Positions 40,173 to 50,789 of a stretch of DNA of 64,000 bases are shown here, in pieces (the first letter of the stretch is position 1; each line of letters starts with the position of its first letter). The notes under the pieces were generated by a model. The model made no database searches, had not been told where the DNA came from, and saw only the letters and a list, made by a program, of their open reading frames with translations. Origin of the DNA: Octopus vulgaris (taxonomy: Eukaryota); NCBI GenBank assembly GCA_951406725.2, contig OX597821.1, positions 31,372,001-31,436,000 of the forward strand. Reading direction: 5' to 3'. The translations under genes and the position numbers were made by a program.

Positions 40173-41542
40173 CTAATCCCAATGTAGTCCTTTCCCTCCA
40201 GGGAACGAAGGTGCATGTGGACGTTGCAATGTCTTGTCTTCTGTATATACTTCTGTATATACGAGGTTCCTAGCTGTCCGTTTGGGCGAAAACATGAAAA
40301 CATCATTGCGCCTCCCAACGCGTGAACAGCCCACGTAGAGTTGACCGTGGGCGAAGCACTGTTCGCCCAAATGTAACCCAGCGACTTGTAGCGTTTGGCC
40401 TTGGGATTTATTGATGGACATTGCGAAGCAGAGTTTAACAGGAAACTGAGAACGCCTGAAGTGGATTGGTAGGTCAGCGCCCGACGGTTGAAGGTGCATC
40501 CGTGGAATGAAGACGTCCTCTCCCTTCCCACAACCGGTAAGTATTGTGGCCGTTATTAAATGTGGTGCCAAATGTTTCACAACCAAACGTGTGCCGTTGC
40601 ACTGTTTAGGTGGAACCAAATTCCTGATGAGCATAATGGGCGCACCGACTTTTAACGTCAGGATGTGTGGTGGCAGGCCTGGCGGTTCAAGTGAATTCAG
40701 GAATTCAACAGGATAATCGGCAAGCTGGGCGGGGTCTGCTGTCCTATCTATAGATTTGTAGACGTGGACATCACCAGGAATAGCTTCAAGTAGCTGGATA
40801 TTGATGGAGTTGACGGTTGTATTTTTGGGTGCGAGAATAGCTCTGCCAGCCATTTTAGGTCGCGTAAATTGTTTTGTAGGTCGTGGAAGACAGCGTCCCG
40901 GAGGCTAGCAGGGGTGTCGACAATGGTGCAAAGTGAGTCCAATTGAACGTAGCCATCCGCATCAGACAGCATCCTATTTTCACCGAGCGATAAGAGGTCC
41001 CTGGAGAATGCAGCGGATCCGCTGTCACCAATTAACTGCGCGCGCATGTTAGTTTGGAGGTGCAAGGGCCGCACATGTGCCCAAAGAGCTGACGACTTAA
41101 GGCACGCGCGCACGGCATCGGCACGGGTTCCTTTTGGAATAACAGGTAGAGTCTGCCTGAAGTCTCCTGAAAGAAGTAAAGTTAATCCTCCCATGGGGGC
41201 CGTAGAGTCTCTGATGTCTTGCAGGGACCTGTCCAGTGCCTCAAGGGCGCCTTTGTGTGCCATAGTGCACTCGTCCCATACGATGAGTTTGCATCTGCGC
41301 AGAATGTCGGCCAGTTCTGAGTTCTTGGCGATGTTGCAGATAGGTGACTCGGACTTTGCCAGATCGAGCGGGAGTCTGAAGGCAGAGTGGGCGGTTCTGC
41401 CACCCGGAAGCAACGTGGCCGCGATACCAGAGGAAGCTACAGCCAGGGCAATGTCCGTGTTGCGGCTGACCTCTGCCAGAATTAGTTTAGTGACGAAGGT
41501 TTTGCCAGTGCCGCCGGGTGCATCAAGGAAGAAAACCCCCAC
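40173..41542 (-). pseudogene. Helitron PIF1-family (SF1B) helicase domain split by two frameshifts
   Basis: ORF 40748-41542 has DAPGGTGKTF, VASSGIAA, IVWDECTM and GDFRQTLPV. ORF 40173-40853 has RAILAPKN, CNGTRL, QFPVKLCFAMSINKSQGQTL and HGQLYVGCSRV. Frameshifts at ~41535 (+1) and ~40842 (-1). Confidence 0.92.
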
Positions 41543-44500
41543 GTTGCTGTCTGACAGAGTCTACGATGGTGTTGTAGGCTATGCGCTGGTCTGGAAGCAG
41601 CCGTGGTTCATTATCTTGGACGTACTGGTGCAGTTCCTCAATGCAGTAGGAAGTTTCGCGTAACAATTCAGCAGACATAACATTGGCGTGTTCACGTGTG
41701 GGTGGTGGAAGGCCGTACTCTGTTAAAGCAGACCCACCCATATCGATGACAGCGTCTTCGAGTTGAATGAGCGCAAAATTGTAAATGAAGTTGGTGAACG
41801 TGATCTCGGCGGAAGGGCAGTGTTGCTGAGCCGTACGTAAGAAGTCGTGCGACATGTCATCCCTGTATTTCATCCAGAGACTTAGTGGATCACTAAGCTG
41901 ACATTTTTGAAGAATGATTGCGAAAAGATGTCGTAGGGCCGAATGCGTTTGCAGTAAAGCACCCTCTGCCATCGTGGCGTCCCACTGGGAGTCATCCTCT
42001 AGAAGGCCAAGTCTCATACATGCTTCCCTGAAGGTGTCGCACAGAACCCCATTGACGGTACGTATATTGGCGAAACCTGTTGGACCAGTGACCTCATGTA
42101 GAAGGAGACGGAGGTAGAAGCATTCTTGCTGGTTTGGCGGGATGTTGTAAACTCGACCCAGGCAGGAGTCAAACTTGACGCCTGGGAAGCTTTCGACGTT
42201 TTTGCCGGATTTCCGTCGAACCCAGGTGTTTTTAGACCACACGAAGTACGATGGGACCTGTGGGTACAAAAGCGTTCGAGCGAAGTCATCACGTTGGCAT
42301 AATTTGAAGAAACCAGTCAACGTTGTGTCTTTAGGGCTGGTGGCTATCTGCACAGCACTTTGCTCTGTGAAGTAAATCTGCTGTCCATTTTCCAAGTGTA
42401 CAGCAAGCTGCACCACAGCCGGGTGTCTCTGATGGAGCGGGAAGCCGTAAATGCGCCAAAATGCTTCGTTGCTGCTGAGGTACCGGCCAGCCAAGTAGTT
42501 GGACACTTCGTCGCGACTGGTGGTACTCTGGATGCTGAACATGGCAGCATCGCTGCCTTTGTTGATATATTTGCAGACATATTGTATTGACCTGATGGAA
42601 CTGCAGAACTCAACGTTGACGTGGGCTTTGAATATCTTCGACAGGAGAGGACAGTAGGGGACAACGTAGCTGTTGTCCACTTGATGTCGCCCAACCGTAA
42701 TCGTGCGGCCTCCATTGGCTGGACTCCTTCGTTTGTACAGCGGATACCCATCGCCGCCTGTTTGAGTCTCCAAAGTGAACCGTTTAGGGAATCCCTTTGA
42801 GCAGGCTAATCCGTTTTTGTAGCATGGTGTGTTGGCGTAATTTGGTCTACAGGGCCCGTGTACCATGGTAGTGCGGACAATTTCGTAGAGTCCGGGGTCC
42901 TCATCGGGGTCAGGAATCTCGGCGGAAATGAATTTGTCAATGTCATTAGTCTCGATTTTATGAGTGAGCCAAATTAAGATGTGAGCATGTGGCAAGCCCC
43001 TCTTTTGCCACTCGACCGAAAACATGTGGCACCTGACATGCCCGAAAATCTGACCCTTAACTATCAAATCCTTCATTTTGCCCAAATTCAGACGGAAAAC
43101 CCTAGCAACGATGTCGTGTCGATGGGTGTGAGATTGACCCGGGAGGAGTTCGCGAGTGATTTCGTCGCAGCTGGGATTGCACGTGTAGGTGATAAAGAGG
43201 TCCGGCCGGCCGTAAATGCGCACGTAGGTCAAGGCGTCTTGGGTCCTTTCACGCATATATCGCGGTCCTCCCGTGAAGGTGGAGGGTAGAATGCATGGCT
43301 TGCCGATGTTGCGAGGGTCATTTTCTTGTTGCAAACCGTCACGGAGATGAATGTAGGAGTCGGAGCGAAGTTTGGTATGATTAAGTTTAATGTATAGCAG
43401 CCTTTCCGATTCCATTTTTGCGGCCATGTCGACGGCGAACTGGTTGAATAGCTGACGACAACGGGGCAATAAGTTGAACTCACCCTCCCTGACCATGAAC
43501 CGGTATGAGTAGAACGCCCTGCAGGAAACCGTCTTTGATGCCGCAGTAGTTTGATTGGAGGGCTGCCGTAAAGGAATTCCGAAGTGGTAGCCGTCTTCCC
43601 CATAAGGGAAAAGCAATGGATACTGAAGCGCGTCATAAGATCTGTGAGTCTCGCTGATCCTGTGTAGGTTGTTACCACGGGAGGAGATGATTATGTCACG
43701 GCTGTTGTGTTGCTCTCCGTGTATAACTGCGGCAATTTCGTTGCACGCACGTGCGTTGAAACGGCGTTCGTGCTCCCCGTGGGGTCGTTTATCAGCATCA
43801 ATGACAACGGTGAAGTTTGGAGATGGAGCACTGTCCAAGGCATATCTGAAGCTGCAGACGTAGCTGTTGATATCATGAAGCATGGTTTGGAGACGGAGAA
43901 GAATGTTTTTGCGGGGAACATAGCTTGTACCCGGTATTATTCCAAGGCGTGCATCAACCTGGTGGTTGTAGTCGGCAATGAAGTATATTTGGAGGAAAGA
44001 AGACTGCTGAATCTCGTCTGGCAGAAGTGACCCAATAAGATGGTAGACCTGTCCCTGCACTTTGAAAGTAGGCATCCAGCCTTCTCTGGGAGGAATTTTG
44101 GCCCCGAAAGAGGTAATTTGGAATGAGCAGTTGTACTTTCGAATTATTTCAAGGAATTGTGACGAATCGGGGGTTAAACCCGCCGCGAGATCCTTCAGTG
44201 GTTGAGGTGGTTCCCGTAGGGGTGGCAGGTCCACTTTACCACCAGAGCAGCACAAACCAGGTGGCTCTCCGGGCCATTTCTTGGCTTTGCAAAACTGGCA
44301 TACAATTGTCATTGACCCTATCTTGATGTCGTCACGCAAGGAGAAGTTAATTGTGGCGTCGTAGTTGAATGCTAGTGACAACCAGAAAGCGGGGGCAGGG
44401 GTACGTACACCACGAATGATATCCCGACGTCTGTTGATACTCTCAAGTCGAGTGCACCGTGCCTCAGCAGATTCAGATGCACGTGCGACAGCGGTAGCAG

Positions 44501-45104
44501 TGGCATCCCTTGAAAGCCTTTCAGCTCTCGCCTCAGCACCCTCTGAAGCCCTAGCAGAAGCAGTGTTAATGGCATGTCTGGATGTCCGAATAGTCCGTTG
44601 GTGTGGAGTTTCGGCAGATCGAGCCCTGGCTGTGTTTGCGGCGTTAGCAGCTTGGCGAGCTCTCCTCTGTTGAGGTGTTTCGGCAGCTTTGGCCATGGCT
44701 TTGTTTGCGGCGTCAGCATCTTGGCGAGTTCTCCTCTGCTGTGAGGTTTCGACAGATCGTGTCCTGGCAGTGCTAGTGGCGTTAGCCGCATTCCGAATGG
44801 CCCTTTGTTCGGGGTTCTCGCGAGCTCTGCGGATGGAAGCACAGTAAGAAGCCCGCTTGTTTTGGCTGGACTGTTGCTCTTTCGTCAACCTCGAGCGGAG
44901 GGAAGATCTGTACGCTGCGACCCTTGCAAGTCGGGTAGAACGGTCGCTAGTAGTTTCAGATGCCTGAGCAGCGGCATAACGGGAAGCTGTTTGCGAGAGG
45001 CGCAAGGCGGTTTCCTCGTGGGTCTCGCGTGCCCTTCTAGCCCTAGCAGCCGATGCCTTGGCCGTCTGAGGACTGAGGAGGGTCCTTCTCTTCTTGGATG
45101 GCAT
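41523..45104 (-). CDS. Helitron Rep/helicase, N-terminal and Rep part (likely start MPSKKRR at 45104)
   Basis: Nine 23-aa ET..R..R repeats, Zn motif CQFCKAKKW...CCSGGK, HUH motif 1 DLFITYTCNP, motif 2 VEWQKRGLPHAHIL and motif 3 YVCKYINKG. Confidence 0.92.
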   Translation of the reverse strand: MPSKKRRTLLSPQTAKASAARARRARETHEETALRLSQTASRYAAAQASETTSDRSTRLARVAAYRSSLRSRLTKEQQSSQNKRASYCASIRRARENPEQRAIRNAANATSTARTRSVETSQQRRTRQDADAANKAMAKAAETPQQRRARQAANAANTARARSAETPHQRTIRTSRHAINTASARASEGAEARAERLSRDATATAVARASESAEARCTRLESINRRRDIIRGVRTPAPAFWLSLAFNYDATINFSLRDDIKIGSMTIVCQFCKAKKWPGEPPGLCCSGGKVDLPPLREPPQPLKDLAAGLTPDSSQFLEIIRKYNCSFQITSFGAKIPPREGWMPTFKVQGQVYHLIGSLLPDEIQQSSFLQIYFIADYNHQVDARLGIIPGTSYVPRKNILLRLQTMLHDINSYVCSFRYALDSAPSPNFTVVIDADKRPHGEHERRFNARACNEIAAVIHGEQHNSRDIIISSRGNNLHRISETHRSYDALQYPLLFPYGEDGYHFGIPLRQPSNQTTAASKTVSCRAFYSYRFMVREGEFNLLPRCRQLFNQFAVDMAAKMESERLLYIKLNHTKLRSDSYIHLRDGLQQENDPRNIGKPCILPSTFTGGPRYMRERTQDALTYVRIYGRPDLFITYTCNPSCDEITRELLPGQSHTHRHDIVARVFRLNLGKMKDLIVKGQIFGHVRCHMFSVEWQKRGLPHAHILIWLTHKIETNDIDKFISAEIPDPDEDPGLYEIVRTTMVHGPCRPNYANTPCYKNGLACSKGFPKRFTLETQTGGDGYPLYKRRSPANGGRTITVGRHQVDNSYVVPYCPLLSKIFKAHVNVEFCSSIRSIQYVCKYINKGSDAAMFSIQSTTSRDEVSNYLAGRYLSSNEAFWRIYGFPLHQRHPAVVQLAVHLENGQQIYFTEQSAVQIATSPKDTTLTGFFKLCQRDDFARTLLYPQVPSYFVWSKNTWVRRKSGKNVESFPGVKFDSCLGRVYNIPPNQQECFYLRLLLHEVTGPTGFANIRTVNGVLCDTFREACMRLGLLEDDSQWDATMAEGALLQTHSALRHLFAIILQKCQLSDPLSLWMKYRDDMSHDFLRTAQQHCPSAEITFTNFIYNFALIQLEDAVIDMGGSALTEYGLPPPTREHANVMSAELLRETSYCIEELHQYVQDNEPRLLPDQRIAYNTIVDSVRQQRGGFLP

Positions 45105-45225
45105 TTTGGTGGATAGCAATGTGTTTGGCAAAGGTGTAATAAAAAGGAACACGTGGGGTAAGTATTTTGGTGGATAGCAATGTGTTTGGTAAAGGTGTAA
45201 TAAAAAGGAGCTCGTGGGGTAAGTA
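45105..45225. repeat. Two ~60-bp tandem copies immediately upstream of the Helitron start codon
   Basis: tttggtggatagcaatgtgtttgg.aaaggtgtaataaaaagga..cgtggggtaagta occurs twice. Confidence 0.85.
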
Positions 45226-46493
45226 TCCGAAAATGTATAAAAATGTACAAAAACGGCCAAAAAGCTGGCAGCAATGTGAGTGACAACAACGAAAAAGTCA
45301 AAAGTGATCAAACTGAACAAACGAAAGGAAAAGTTTTTTGATGCACACGACAAAAGTGGTTTATAATAAACCAAGAGTTTGCAAGTAGCGTCCGAGGACC
45401 GTTAGGGTACGTCAAAAATTGAAGGTAAAACGTTTGGGGTGGTAGTTATAAAGAAAGTTTAAACCAAAAAAGTATTCGAATAACTTGCGGCTGCAGCAGC
45501 TATTAGCAGAAGTGGCGGTGTTGGGGGTAAAGTCTCGAATGTAATTTCTTCCTGGTAGGAATTGGTTGGATCGAATTATCGATAGCTAAAAAGGTCAAGT
45601 TGCGTCCCCTAGACAGTCTGGTTTGTGTTTAATACACAAATTTGTTTGCTATGTGTGCCACATATGATTAAATTAACCGATTTTTTCCAATAATGTATCC
45701 TATTGGAATAAAAAGGGCTATATAGCTCCTTGGAGCAGACATGATGCTCGTTGTGAAAAAAAAAAGATTCCTGCCAATTTGTGAAAGATATTGTCGAAAA
45801 TATGTCATCTTGAATTTGAACGCGATTTCCCAAAATGGCATGATTTTATCGATTGTTTCTGATGGTAAGGTATTGCATGGAAAACTAACGTCAGAATTGA
45901 GTTTCTTAGGGTAACATTAAGCTTCACCATGAGTTTGGTGAAAATCGATTGCAAGTTGTGAAAACTACCATAGATAATGCGTTGCATAAAAAAAGCTTAG
46001 ATTCTCGAGTTGCGTCCCCTAGACAGTCTGTGGTTCATGTTTATGATTCTCGACCCCATGTCGAATTTATCAATTTTTTTCAGAACTGGGGGAACTTTTC
46101 AAAATTTTCGCTGCGTTAGTTTTGAATTATGACATTGGGCTATGTGTGTGTCAAGTTTCATCAGAATCGGTTGAAAGCCGTGGTCAGGGTGAGGGTACGA
46201 GAAAACAGACACACAGAAGCACGCACAGACAAACTGCCGTTTATATATATATATATATATATATATGGATGAATGAATTATCCTTTGTTTACCCTTAACA
46301 TGTAAAATTAAATAAACAGTTACCAGGGTAGCAAAATTCACGCAAGTAACAAGGATGTAGCGACCTATTCAAAGGTAGAAACTCCGGGTTTATGTGCATG
46401 TGCAGTAATCTGTATAGTATAAGTAAATAAATGGAATTGAACGCATCTGTATTCAACTCCATTTATTTACTTATATATATATATATATATATA

Positions 46494-48341
46494 TAACAAT
46501 TTAGGAGTGACCTTAACAGGCCATTCGTCCACCAGAAAGAGCAGCCATAACTCACACCGCCAAGTAGTAGTAATTCAGAAATTAGGTGAAAATTTAAAAA
46601 CATTTACCCTAATTCATCTTTTAGACGATGCATCGTTTCTGTGTCATTAATGATTAAATTAGCTTAATTAAATTAAATTAAGCTAATCTACCATAGGTTA
46701 CACTTCATCAGTAAAAAACCTGGGAGAGACAAATATACACGAGGCGTCTGTATCGATGCCTCCGGAATATCTGTCTTAAAATTTTCAAGACTGACGTATT
46801 CGCGCCAAACTTATCAGCAGTAAATATAAACTGCCGATTCAATCTCAGAATTATTCAGAAAATTATCAATTAGTCAATTTAGGGTAGCAAAAAAATTCAA
46901 TAGAAATTTATCGCTACCAGCGGCCTAGTGGAAAAGAGAAAATAGTCAACGACTAAATATATAAATATAACAATTTAGGAGTGACCTTAACAGGCCATTC
47001 GTCCACCAGAAAGAGCAGCCATAACTCACACCGCCAAGTAGTAGTAATTCAGAAATTAGGTGAAAATTTAAAAACATTTACCCTAATTCATCTTTTAGAC
47101 GATGCATCGTTTCTGTGTCATTAATGATTAAATTAGCTTAATTAAATTAAATTAAGCTAATCTACCATAGGTTACACTTCATCAGTAAAAAATCTGGGAG
47201 AGACAAATATACACGAGGCGTCTGTATCGATGCCTCCGGAATATCTGTCTTAAAATTTTCAAGACTGACGTATTCGCGCCAAACGTATCAGCAGTAAATA
47301 TAAACTGCCGATTCAATCTCAGAATTATTCAGAAAATTATCAATTAGTCAATTTAGGGTAGCAAAAAATTCAATAGAAATTTATCGCTACCAGCGGCCTA
47401 GTGGAAAAGAGAAAATAGTCAACGACTAAATATATAAATATAACAATTTAGGAGTGACCTTAACAGGCCATTCGTCCACCAGAAAGAGCAGCCATAACTC
47501 ACACCGCCAAGTAGTAGTAATTCAGAAATTAGGTGAAAATTTAAAAACATTTACCCTAATTCATCTTTTAGACGATGCATCGTTTCTGTATCATTAATGA
47601 TTAAATTAGCTTAATTAAATTAAATTAAGCTAATCTACCATAGGTTACACTTCATCAGTAAAAAACCTGGGAGAGACAAATATACACGAGGCGTCTGTAT
47701 CGATGCCTCCGGAATATCTGTCTTAAAATTTTCAAGACTGGCCTGTTAAGGTCACTCCTAAATTGTTATATTTATATATTTAGTCGTTGACTATTTTCTC
47801 TTTTCCACTAGGCCGCTGGTAGCGATAAATTTCTATTGAATTTTTTTGCTACCCTAAATTGACTAATTGATATTTTTCTGAATAATTCTGAGATTGAATC
47901 GGCAGTTTATATTTACTGCTGATAAGTTTGGCGCGAATACGTCAGTCTTGAAAATTTTAAGACAGATATTCCGGAGGCATCGATACAGACGCCTCGTGTA
48001 TATTTGTCTCTCCCAGGTTTTTTACTGATGAAGTGTAACCTATGGTAGATTAGCTTAATTTAATTTAATTAAGCTAATTTAATCATTAATGACACAGAAA
48101 CGATGCATCGTCTAAAAGATGAATTAGGGTAAATGTTTTTAAATTTTCACCTAATTTCTGAATTACTACTACTTGGCGGTGTGAGTTATGGCTGCTCTTT
48201 CTGGTGGACGAATGGCCTGTTAAGGTCACTCCTAAATTGTTATATTTATATATTTAGTCGTTGACTATTTTCTCTTTTCCACTAGGCCGCTGGTAGCGAT
48301 AAATTTCTCTTGAATTTTTTTGCTACCCTAAATTGACTAAT
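46494..48341. mobile_element. 474-bp hammerhead-bearing multimer: ~2.6 direct copies plus ~1.3 inverted copies (retrozyme / Penelope pLTR-like)
   Basis: Units start at 46494, 46968 and 47441. Inversion at ~47740. Copies are nearly identical, with no ORF of 60 aa or more and (TA)n on both flanks. One HHR per unit. Confidence 0.9.
48018..48118 (+). ncRNA. Type I hammerhead ribozyme (near-identical copies on - at 46618-46718, 47092-47192, 47565-47665)
   Basis: ttttta-CTGATGA-a-gtgt[long AU-rich stem]acac-a-GAAA-cgatgcatc-GTC-taaaag: intact core, palindromic stem III, GUC site. Confidence 0.85.
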
Positions 48342-48455
48342 ATATATATATATATATACGTATACTTACACATATAAATCCCTAAATATATGTTATTTTG
48401 TTACTGTATGCATGTAAATCAATCTGTACATGAGGATGAAGTTTCTTTAATATAT

Positions 48456-49726: not shown

Positions 49727-50581
49727 TAGTTTTATTTTTATAGCGTGCCTTCACTTCACTACCGAGCGCAGTCTGTGTGCCTTGGGTATGTGCTGTGATT
49801 TGTTGTGATGCTCTGATGGTTATTGTATGGAAAGTGTTCTGCGTAGGATGTGTGCAGTGCCTAGTAGTGCAATTTTCTGTATGTTATATGTGTTTGTAAG
49901 TCCTGGTGTTTTTGTTATGTATTTGTATGAATATTTTTTTATCATGCCTAATGCATCTACTATGATAGGAATTGTTTCTGTTTTCAGATTCCACATTCTA
50001 GTTACCTCTATTTCCAGGTCTTTGTATTTTGAGAGTTTCTCCATTTCTTTTAGAGACACGTTGTCATCTGCCGGTATTGATACATCAATTAGAAAGCATT
50101 TTTTTCTTCATGATCTCTGACAACTATATCTGGTCTGTTGGCCTTAATTTCTCTATCTGTGTGTATCGGCATATCCCAGGGTATGGTTGCTTTCTCGTTT
50201 TCTGTGACCTTTTCTGGTGTGTGCCTATACCATCTTTATTCTGTTGTTATTCCATAATGTTGGCATAGCTTCCAATGTATGTAGGTTCCAACTCTGTCAT
50301 GTCTGTGAATATATTCCTTCTTAGCAAGGACTGGGCAGCTAGAGATAATATGATTTATTGTTTCTTGTCCATCTCCACATATTCTGCAGTTACTTGTAAT
50401 ATTTCTTTTCATTACATGTTTTTGGTAATTTCTGGTGGGGAGGCTTTGGTCTTGTGCTGCAATTAAAAATCCCTCTGTTTCTGCTTTGAGTCCTGAGCTT
50501 CTCAACCATTGCTGGGATTTTACTTTGTCTATTTCTTTTGCGTTTAGTTTAGTGCAGTATTTACCATGAAGGGGCTTTTCT
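49723..50581 (-). mobile_element. Second 5'-truncated copy of the R4/Dong LINE
   Basis: Closely similar to 26519-27378 (CCHC, RLE, 3' UTR). The 3' end lies in (TAA)n. Confidence 0.92.
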
Positions 50582-50789
50582 GTCTCCGATAAAGAACATA
50601 CATTTCGCTAGAAGTAATTAAGCGGAAACTGATTAAGTAATATAGTTTTAGAAAATCTTTGGCATTCACCGAACTATCGAGAATTAAGTAATTAAAGTTA
50701 ATTAATTCTAGAAATTGCAGCAAATGTAAATTGAAATATATGTAACGTTACTATAGGTATATACGTTACTATACTAAATGTATGCAGTA

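Follow-up and report, generated by a model that had tools for sequence, protein, structure and literature searches.

A young retrozyme of Octopus vulgaris with a predicted hammerhead ribozyme, paired insertion ends and probable Penelope-like mobilization

Introduction

We describe a young, dispersed and mobile repeat family in the genome of Octopus vulgaris. Its 474-nt units are ORF-less and each carries a predicted type I hammerhead ribozyme with a conserved fold; given these properties, we class the family by its sequence as a non-LTR retrozyme, an additional one of ordinary length and of the expected kind. When all intact inverted insertions are pooled, 64 of 65 combine one each of two fixed 3' ends, A and B, and it appears likely that copying by a Penelope-like enzyme is initiated at both sites, one per DNA strand. 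We regard mobilization by a Penelope-like element as highly probable. The whole explanation, in which a young hammerhead retrozyme is copied by such an enzyme at sites A and B, probably from circular RNA, is one that we favor with moderate confidence.

How Penelope-like elements make inverted and tailed insertions is described as an open question in PMC8557442 (here and below, statements on published work refer to the available portions of the sources). The unusually clean insertion record of the Octopus family makes this open mechanism testable. Mobilization of retrozymes by Penelope-like elements was earlier based on co-occurrence and sequence kinship; the Octopus family bears the Penelope footprint itself, at more than 100 young loci. 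The literature that we searched yielded no statement of a strict pairing of A and B ends, or of a retrozyme with a Penelope footprint, although subscription papers or supplements could hold one.

Results

An inverted array between two TA tracts

The window, that is, the whole 64,000-nt stretch of DNA analyzed here, contains a tandem array of period 474 at 46483–47740 (2.7 copies, 99% matches; Tandem Repeats Finder), and window positions 46001–48000 have a GC content of 34.6%. The left arm of the insertion, 46494..47740 on the minus strand, consists of about 2.6 head-to-tail units and extends from an inner end at unit position 194 to an outer (3') end at site A (unit position 18–22). The right arm, 47736..48341 on the plus strand, consists of about 1.3 units, with its inner end near unit position 461 and its outer (3') end at site B (unit position 116–118). 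Units are numbered U1–U474 from window position 47750, with the plus strand as the hammerhead-sense strand. The two 5' ends meet at the inversion junction, 47736..47740, a 5-nt alignment overlap in which four of five letters match the right arm. The 98-nt interval from A to B, hereafter the tail, is terminal on the B-ended arm only (48242..48341, plus strand), and (TA)n target tracts flank the insertion on the left (46472..46493) and on the right (48342..48358). With its A end on the left and its B end on the right, the insertion is typical for the family.

An earlier note on this DNA, made from the letters alone, had described an ORF-less multimer of near-identical 474/473-bp units, with about 2.6 head-to-tail copies followed by about 1.3 inverted ones. 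This description holds: on the minus strand, successive predicted cuts are spaced at 474 and 473 nt, the arms have the extents given above, and no stop-to-stop ORF of at least 100 aa overlaps the array. The same note saw both ends fall mid-unit in (TA)n, which is correct as to their place against TA, while the positions proved to be fixed sites used family-wide. Its remark that the unit is longer than described retrozymes has to be withdrawn, as 474 bp lies inside the range of 51–972 bp given for non-LTR retrozyme units (Li, Clavereau & Pollet 2026 preprint, 10.64898/2026.07.22.740005).

The left TA tract doubles as the terminal tract of an older Penelope-like stub, and the array is nested in it. 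This stub, at 46267–46471, is inverted, flanked by TA and about 90% identical to its relatives (1494 candidates); longer copies of its family contain a hammerhead and an endonuclease-like C-terminal frame, and end at two sites about 157 nt apart. Elsewhere in the window, a Helitron occupies 40173–45401 on the minus strand, with a 1292-aa frame (Helitron_like_N, STPR repeats) followed by frameshifted pieces of a PIF1 helicase, and a 123-aa frame at 50236–50607, also on the minus strand, presumably corresponds to the C-terminal zinc-finger region of a non-LTR retrotransposon, which it resembles.

A search of the genome (G000, 2.8 Gb) returned at least 209 matches from 39 scored of 1740 candidates, with full units at 96–100%, and a 23-letter hammerhead stretch has 197 exact matches. 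A second subfamily lies about 12% away, its members being 97–99% alike. We examined 124 loci: a first set of 87, a set of 19 selected by their B end, and 18 new loci from the search with the second subfamily. These dispersed copies, with arms of up to 6.9 units, bear out the proposal that the multimer is of retrozyme type and mobile. Two loci 14 kb apart, L355 and L356 (G000:C31), have identical breakpoints, probably by segmental duplication; they were treated as one duplicated insertion, and only L356 was entered as A+B.

A predicted hammerhead in every unit

The window array contains four copies of the predicted type I hammerhead, three on the minus strand at 46619..46716, 47093..47190 and 47566..47663 (predicted cuts after 46624, 47098 and 47571) and one on the plus strand at 48020..48117 (predicted cut after 48112). 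Its core corresponds to U276–U363, with the predicted cut after U363. All catalytic letters of the three-stem core (CUGANGA, GAAA, UH) are present and nearly invariant across about 80 loci; stem I has at least five pairs, stem III is palindromic, and stem II, of about 63 nt, is branched. Instead of the canonical junction, with pair 10.1–11.1 directly on the core, the stem II base is flanked by two extra As, one between positions 9 and 10.1 and one before GAAA. An extra base at the former position is usual for Penelope-like hammerheads (PMC4209133); for the latter, the available portions of the hammerhead literature consulted yielded no description. Rfam returned no hammerhead at the gathering threshold, nor among 33 matches at E<=10. 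Accordingly, where one intact hammerhead per unit had been claimed, the complete core letters and the number per unit stand, while the extra As, the branched stem II and the missing Rfam match speak against calling it intact without reserve.

Hammerhead pairing is kept in 98.7% of 992 cells (31 of 62 distinct copies aligned), against 20–44% in slid controls. Two-sided changes occur at 3 of 32 pairs, in stem II, its inner helix and stem III, and represent few independent events, the sequences being related. The predicted fold lies above the energy minimum, by 1.6 kcal/mol locally and by 4.5–5.6 kcal/mol for the whole unit. A comparative fold of the whole unit has 3 two-sided and 17 one-sided consistent changes in 131 pairs (26 of 50 distinct copies), to which we give little weight because the structure was fitted to the alignment that scored it. 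A regulatory role was considered for an upstream stretch to which the core is paired in the minimum-energy structure, and rejected, since this stretch is altered in the second subfamily.

Two fixed 3' ends that occur in pairs

While 5' ends are scattered over the unit, 3' ends are fixed at U18–22 (A) or U116–118 (B), 98 nt apart and both against TA, and both follow one common 9-letter motif. The earlier expectation that copies start at permuted positions thus fails, the outer ends lying at two fixed sites across 124 loci. Inverted insertions make up 52 of the first 87 loci, their arms head to head with the 3' ends outward. Among those with intact ends in this set, 46 of 47 are A+B, one is B+B and none A+A (binomial p = 3e-13 against 50:50). 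The pairing recurred in 10 of 10 intact inverted insertions of the held-out, B-selected set (19 loci) and in 8 of 8 at the new second-subfamily loci (18 loci); inverted loci with a damaged end were left out of these counts (5/52, 1/11 and 1/9, respectively). Single-armed loci in the first 87 end at A in 26 cases, 7 of which had been picked by that end, at B in 7 and elsewhere in 2. TA is found at both ends of 44 of the 52 inverted loci and at the 3' end of 31 of the 33 A- or B-ended single-armed loci, and target-site duplications are masked by the TA tracts. The insertions thereby show the features of a Penelope-like footprint: an inverted 5'-truncated copy, a tail at one end and (TA)n targeting. 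From this pattern we infer that A and B may be start sites of reverse transcription, one used per target strand.

Two further patterns were set aside. An apparent stalling of B-primed arms inside the tail (8/52 versus 0/47, p 0.006) reflects selection bias, held-out A arms being at most 100 nt long in 6 of 10 cases, and a correlation of arm lengths (rho 0.43) is confounded by selection and was not used as evidence.

The same A+B rule is followed by two other families. In the coding Penelope-like family whose stub adjoins the window array, with a tail of about 157 nt, there are nine clean A+B insertions and no A+A or B+B among 62 loci, and ten more inverted loci were left unclassed. In a third hammerhead family, with a tail of 75–80 nt, all 19 intact inverted insertions among 30 loci are A+B. 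This third family (L303–L332, e.g. G000:C6:33858309-33858565) inserts at TA and has a long stem II and a B end that closely resembles that of the retrozyme. A further TA-flanked family (L121–L131) ends in the 8-letter motif of the retrozyme, with 115 pattern matches versus 24 in the control.

Templates of the arrays

Arrays are nearly uniform within, yet 16 haplotypes occur among the 22 loci of at least three units, and at 8 of the 31 inverted loci of at least 1.9 units, variants that are private among 87 loci are fixed in all copies of both arms, for example in 9 of 9. It follows that one unit was amplified to many, repeatedly. At two loci, the variants have a period of two units, such as a dimer circle would give: at L111 the two arms read T,G and T,G,T,G, in phase with each other, and at L116 variants alternate over five copies. 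We therefore lean towards a circular template as likely. Rolling synthesis on circles has been proposed before (PMC4209133, PMC7229834), and the earlier note likewise suggested reverse transcription around a circular 474-nt RNA combined with a template switch; the array patterns are compatible with its circle, and the switch is discussed below.

The predicted cut site is crossed by 123 of 143 arms, and its crossings contain indels in only 2 of 206 cases. Among the 5' ends of these 143 arms, two lie at the cut, where 3.3 are expected. With no pile-up of 5' ends at the cut and few indels there, cut linear monomers joined by jumps are disfavored as the main template. Uncut linear multimers would account equally well for the clean crossings and for 5' ends that are not enriched at the cut, and we consider it possible, if rather unlikely, that the same element with the same paired priming was copied from such multimers, its long arrays having arisen through tandem expansion at a later time or through precise template jumps, with a minor part for the hammerhead. 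Uncut RNA was the main template of Poseidon in vitro, and the hammerhead was dispensable (PMC11167929); cleavage was absent in 8 of 9 Xenopus retrozyme dimers (preprint 10.64898/2026.07.22.740005). Moreover, the predicted hammerhead fold is not that of lowest energy, and at L049 and L039 copies 1 and 3 are alike and the remainder differ, a pattern that a simple circle does not give and that resembles a two-unit duplication. Against the linear multimer, both arms already hold several units in arrays whose units show no substitutions (e.g. L107, L004), private variants have become fixed in the two inverted arms together, as unequal exchange within one arm would not achieve, and the hammerhead stems covary across subfamilies 12% apart.

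The locus L049/L091 (G000:C8:104849288-104852549) is a single arm of 6.9 units; three linked changes in U90–U143 are common to its copies 1 and 3 and absent from the other five. One of four sequencing runs (X11), only presumed to be RNA, contains a contig of 504 nt that matches window 46874–47376, one unit plus 30 nt. With k = 31 this would be a closed cycle, a weak hint in that a tandem transcript would look identical; none of the runs containing the unit has RNA as its recorded type, and neither ends nor strand can be read from contigs.

Origin of the two arms

Arms of the same locus agree at 2014 of 2031 diagnostic comparisons (17 mismatches), and arms from different loci of like identity at 1708 of 1882 (174 mismatches). 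At 13 of the 44 A+B loci with two arms, neither arm lies fully within the other, and some are wholly disjoint. Since each insertion thus has one haplotype and the arms need not be contained in one another, both were copied from RNA of one haplotype and neither from the other. The same agreement would be expected of two RNA molecules from a single source locus, and an antisense template might conceivably lie behind the arm pairs. The earlier proposal that the inversion arose by a template switch of one cDNA is not supported by these data: the arms end at different fixed sites, and 13 of 44 lack containment either way.

We consider it likely that each inverted insertion involved two primings. 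The published explanations (Arkhipova 2013; Craig 2021) assume a single priming, with the inverted arm formed by fold-back, by self-priming on antisense RNA or by template switch, and the tail by endonuclease resolution of the intermediate. They would account for arms of one haplotype, as fold-back predicts, and for the 4 of 52 junctions that overlap by 16–35 nt; most junctions, however, are not palindromic, with an overlap of 0–7 nt in 33 of 52, the arms cannot be mutual copies at the 13 loci just mentioned, and the tail has now been linked to two start sites of reverse transcription (PMC11167929). A single priming therefore appears improbable.

Penelope-like neighbors

Searches with three local proteins found no ORF with reverse transcriptase (RT) and GIY-YIG domains continuous with the unit in 105 loci, in line with the view that no Penelope ORF is attached. 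It is very improbable that the unit is merely the terminal repeat of a coding Penelope-like element, given that the Penelope-like ORF fragments found less than 3 kb from 7 of 87 and 2 of 18 loci lie at least 180 nt off, in varied places and from varied families, that the element edges there are mostly TA tracts, that pure arrays reach 6.9 units and that the sampled coding-element loci contain no real match to the unit save for one nested stub, or that the array is an assembly artefact, which, judged from the assembled sequence, is disfavored by six differences between the units in the window and by the family at 124 examined loci.

An enzyme donor was not found among the Penelope-like families sampled in the genome. 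With two other families, the unit shares short motifs only, and its alignment to one of them does not exceed shuffled sequences (226 of 300 shuffles reached its score). Real DNA similarity to the unit was likewise not found in two young families with open RT-bearing frames of 781 aa and 776 aa, or in a further Penelope-like family that resembles the Hydra clade by its C-terminal motifs and has no Pfam match. A 78% match beside a GIY-YIG remnant (L163) was considered as a partner and is instead a nested stub, as the end of that family lies 69 nt earlier. The 781-aa and 776-aa families (L251–L258) are very young, with many open frames and an apparent upstream ORF of 300–490 aa, and we take them to be Neptune-like by their zinc-linker motif; in the 776-aa family, more than 1.4 kb of (TG)/(TA)-rich sequence follows the stop.

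Discussion

In the mechanism that we propose, the retrozyme would be transcribed, and its RNA cleaved and ligated into monomer, sometimes dimer, circles. A Penelope-like RT-endonuclease, acting in trans and plausibly as a dimer, would nick both strands of a TA tract, with one cDNA starting at A and one at B. Each reverse transcription might run for 0.1–7 units, and the two cDNA ends would be joined through short microhomology; single-armed copies could be those in which only one priming extends.

Work on Poseidon provides a biochemical counterpart: in vitro, the purified protein cuts and extends both strands (Frangieh et al., PMC11167929), initiates reverse transcription at two sites within the RNA, which delimit the tail, and is predicted to form a dimer. 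Both strands use the same start sites in this system without preference, so the pairing of A and B has not yet been reproduced in vitro. A bolder version of our proposal, which we offer tentatively as possible rather than probable, is that an RT-endonuclease dimer holds one circular RNA at two sites 98 nt apart, with one rolling reverse transcription proceeding from each strand of a single TA break. On this reading, a single event would produce both the tail and the inverted copy in all Penelope-like elements that bear an endonuclease, and the retrozyme circle, monomer or dimer, would be a proven template of retrotransposition, its use recorded in phase-locked period-2 variants. The A+B rule, found in three families, gives the open insertion mechanism a sharp test in the existing in vitro system, for which the ORF-less 474-nt unit is a compact template.

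Like the animal non-LTR retrozymes described to date (PMC7229834; 10.64898/2026.07.22.740005), the Octopus element consists of ORF-less tandem units with one type I hammerhead each, a GC content of about 35%, a palindromic stem III and a length within 51–972 bp, and mobilization by Penelope-like elements has been proposed for them as well. It differs in its long branched stem II with an extra A on both sides of the base, is known here from DNA, and has a Penelope-like footprint (two fixed ends, inverted arm, TA target) that the available portions of these sources do not describe for animal non-LTR retrozymes.

Penelope-like insertions are known to have an inverted 5'-truncated copy and a 30–40 bp tail on one end (PMC8557442, PMC3846280), and several clades, including Hydra and Neptune, target (TA)n (PMC8557442). 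With the endonuclease-bearing elements (PMC8557442, PMC3846280, PMC11167929), the Octopus retrozyme shares partial tandems, the head-to-head inverted copy, the one-end tail, the (TA)n targets and a hammerhead that precedes the ends and has one additional base between positions 9 and 10.1. Unlike them, it has no ORF, and its tail measures 98 nt, not 30–40. A tail on one of the inverted pLTRs has been published qualitatively (PMC3846280), and the tail is called optional for Penelope-like elements in the available texts, whereas the pairing is nearly strict in the Octopus retrozyme.

MRC1 and other non-autonomous elements of Chlamys (PMC8557442) are likewise Penelope-like with multicopy head-to-tail insertions, but their 3' end resembles that of an autonomous family and most have no hammerheads. 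An autonomous partner of this type, with a matching 3' end, was not found among the families sampled in the Octopus genome.

In L1 twin priming, priming on the two target strands yields a 5' inversion joined by microhomology; the second priming site is variable and the two cDNAs do not overlap. This process was reportedly described by Ostertag and Kazazian in 2001. The insertions of the Octopus retrozyme would resemble it in the two proposed primings from two target strands, the 5' inversion and the probable microhomology joint, but both of their sites are fixed, and their arms usually cover the same sequence, often over several units.
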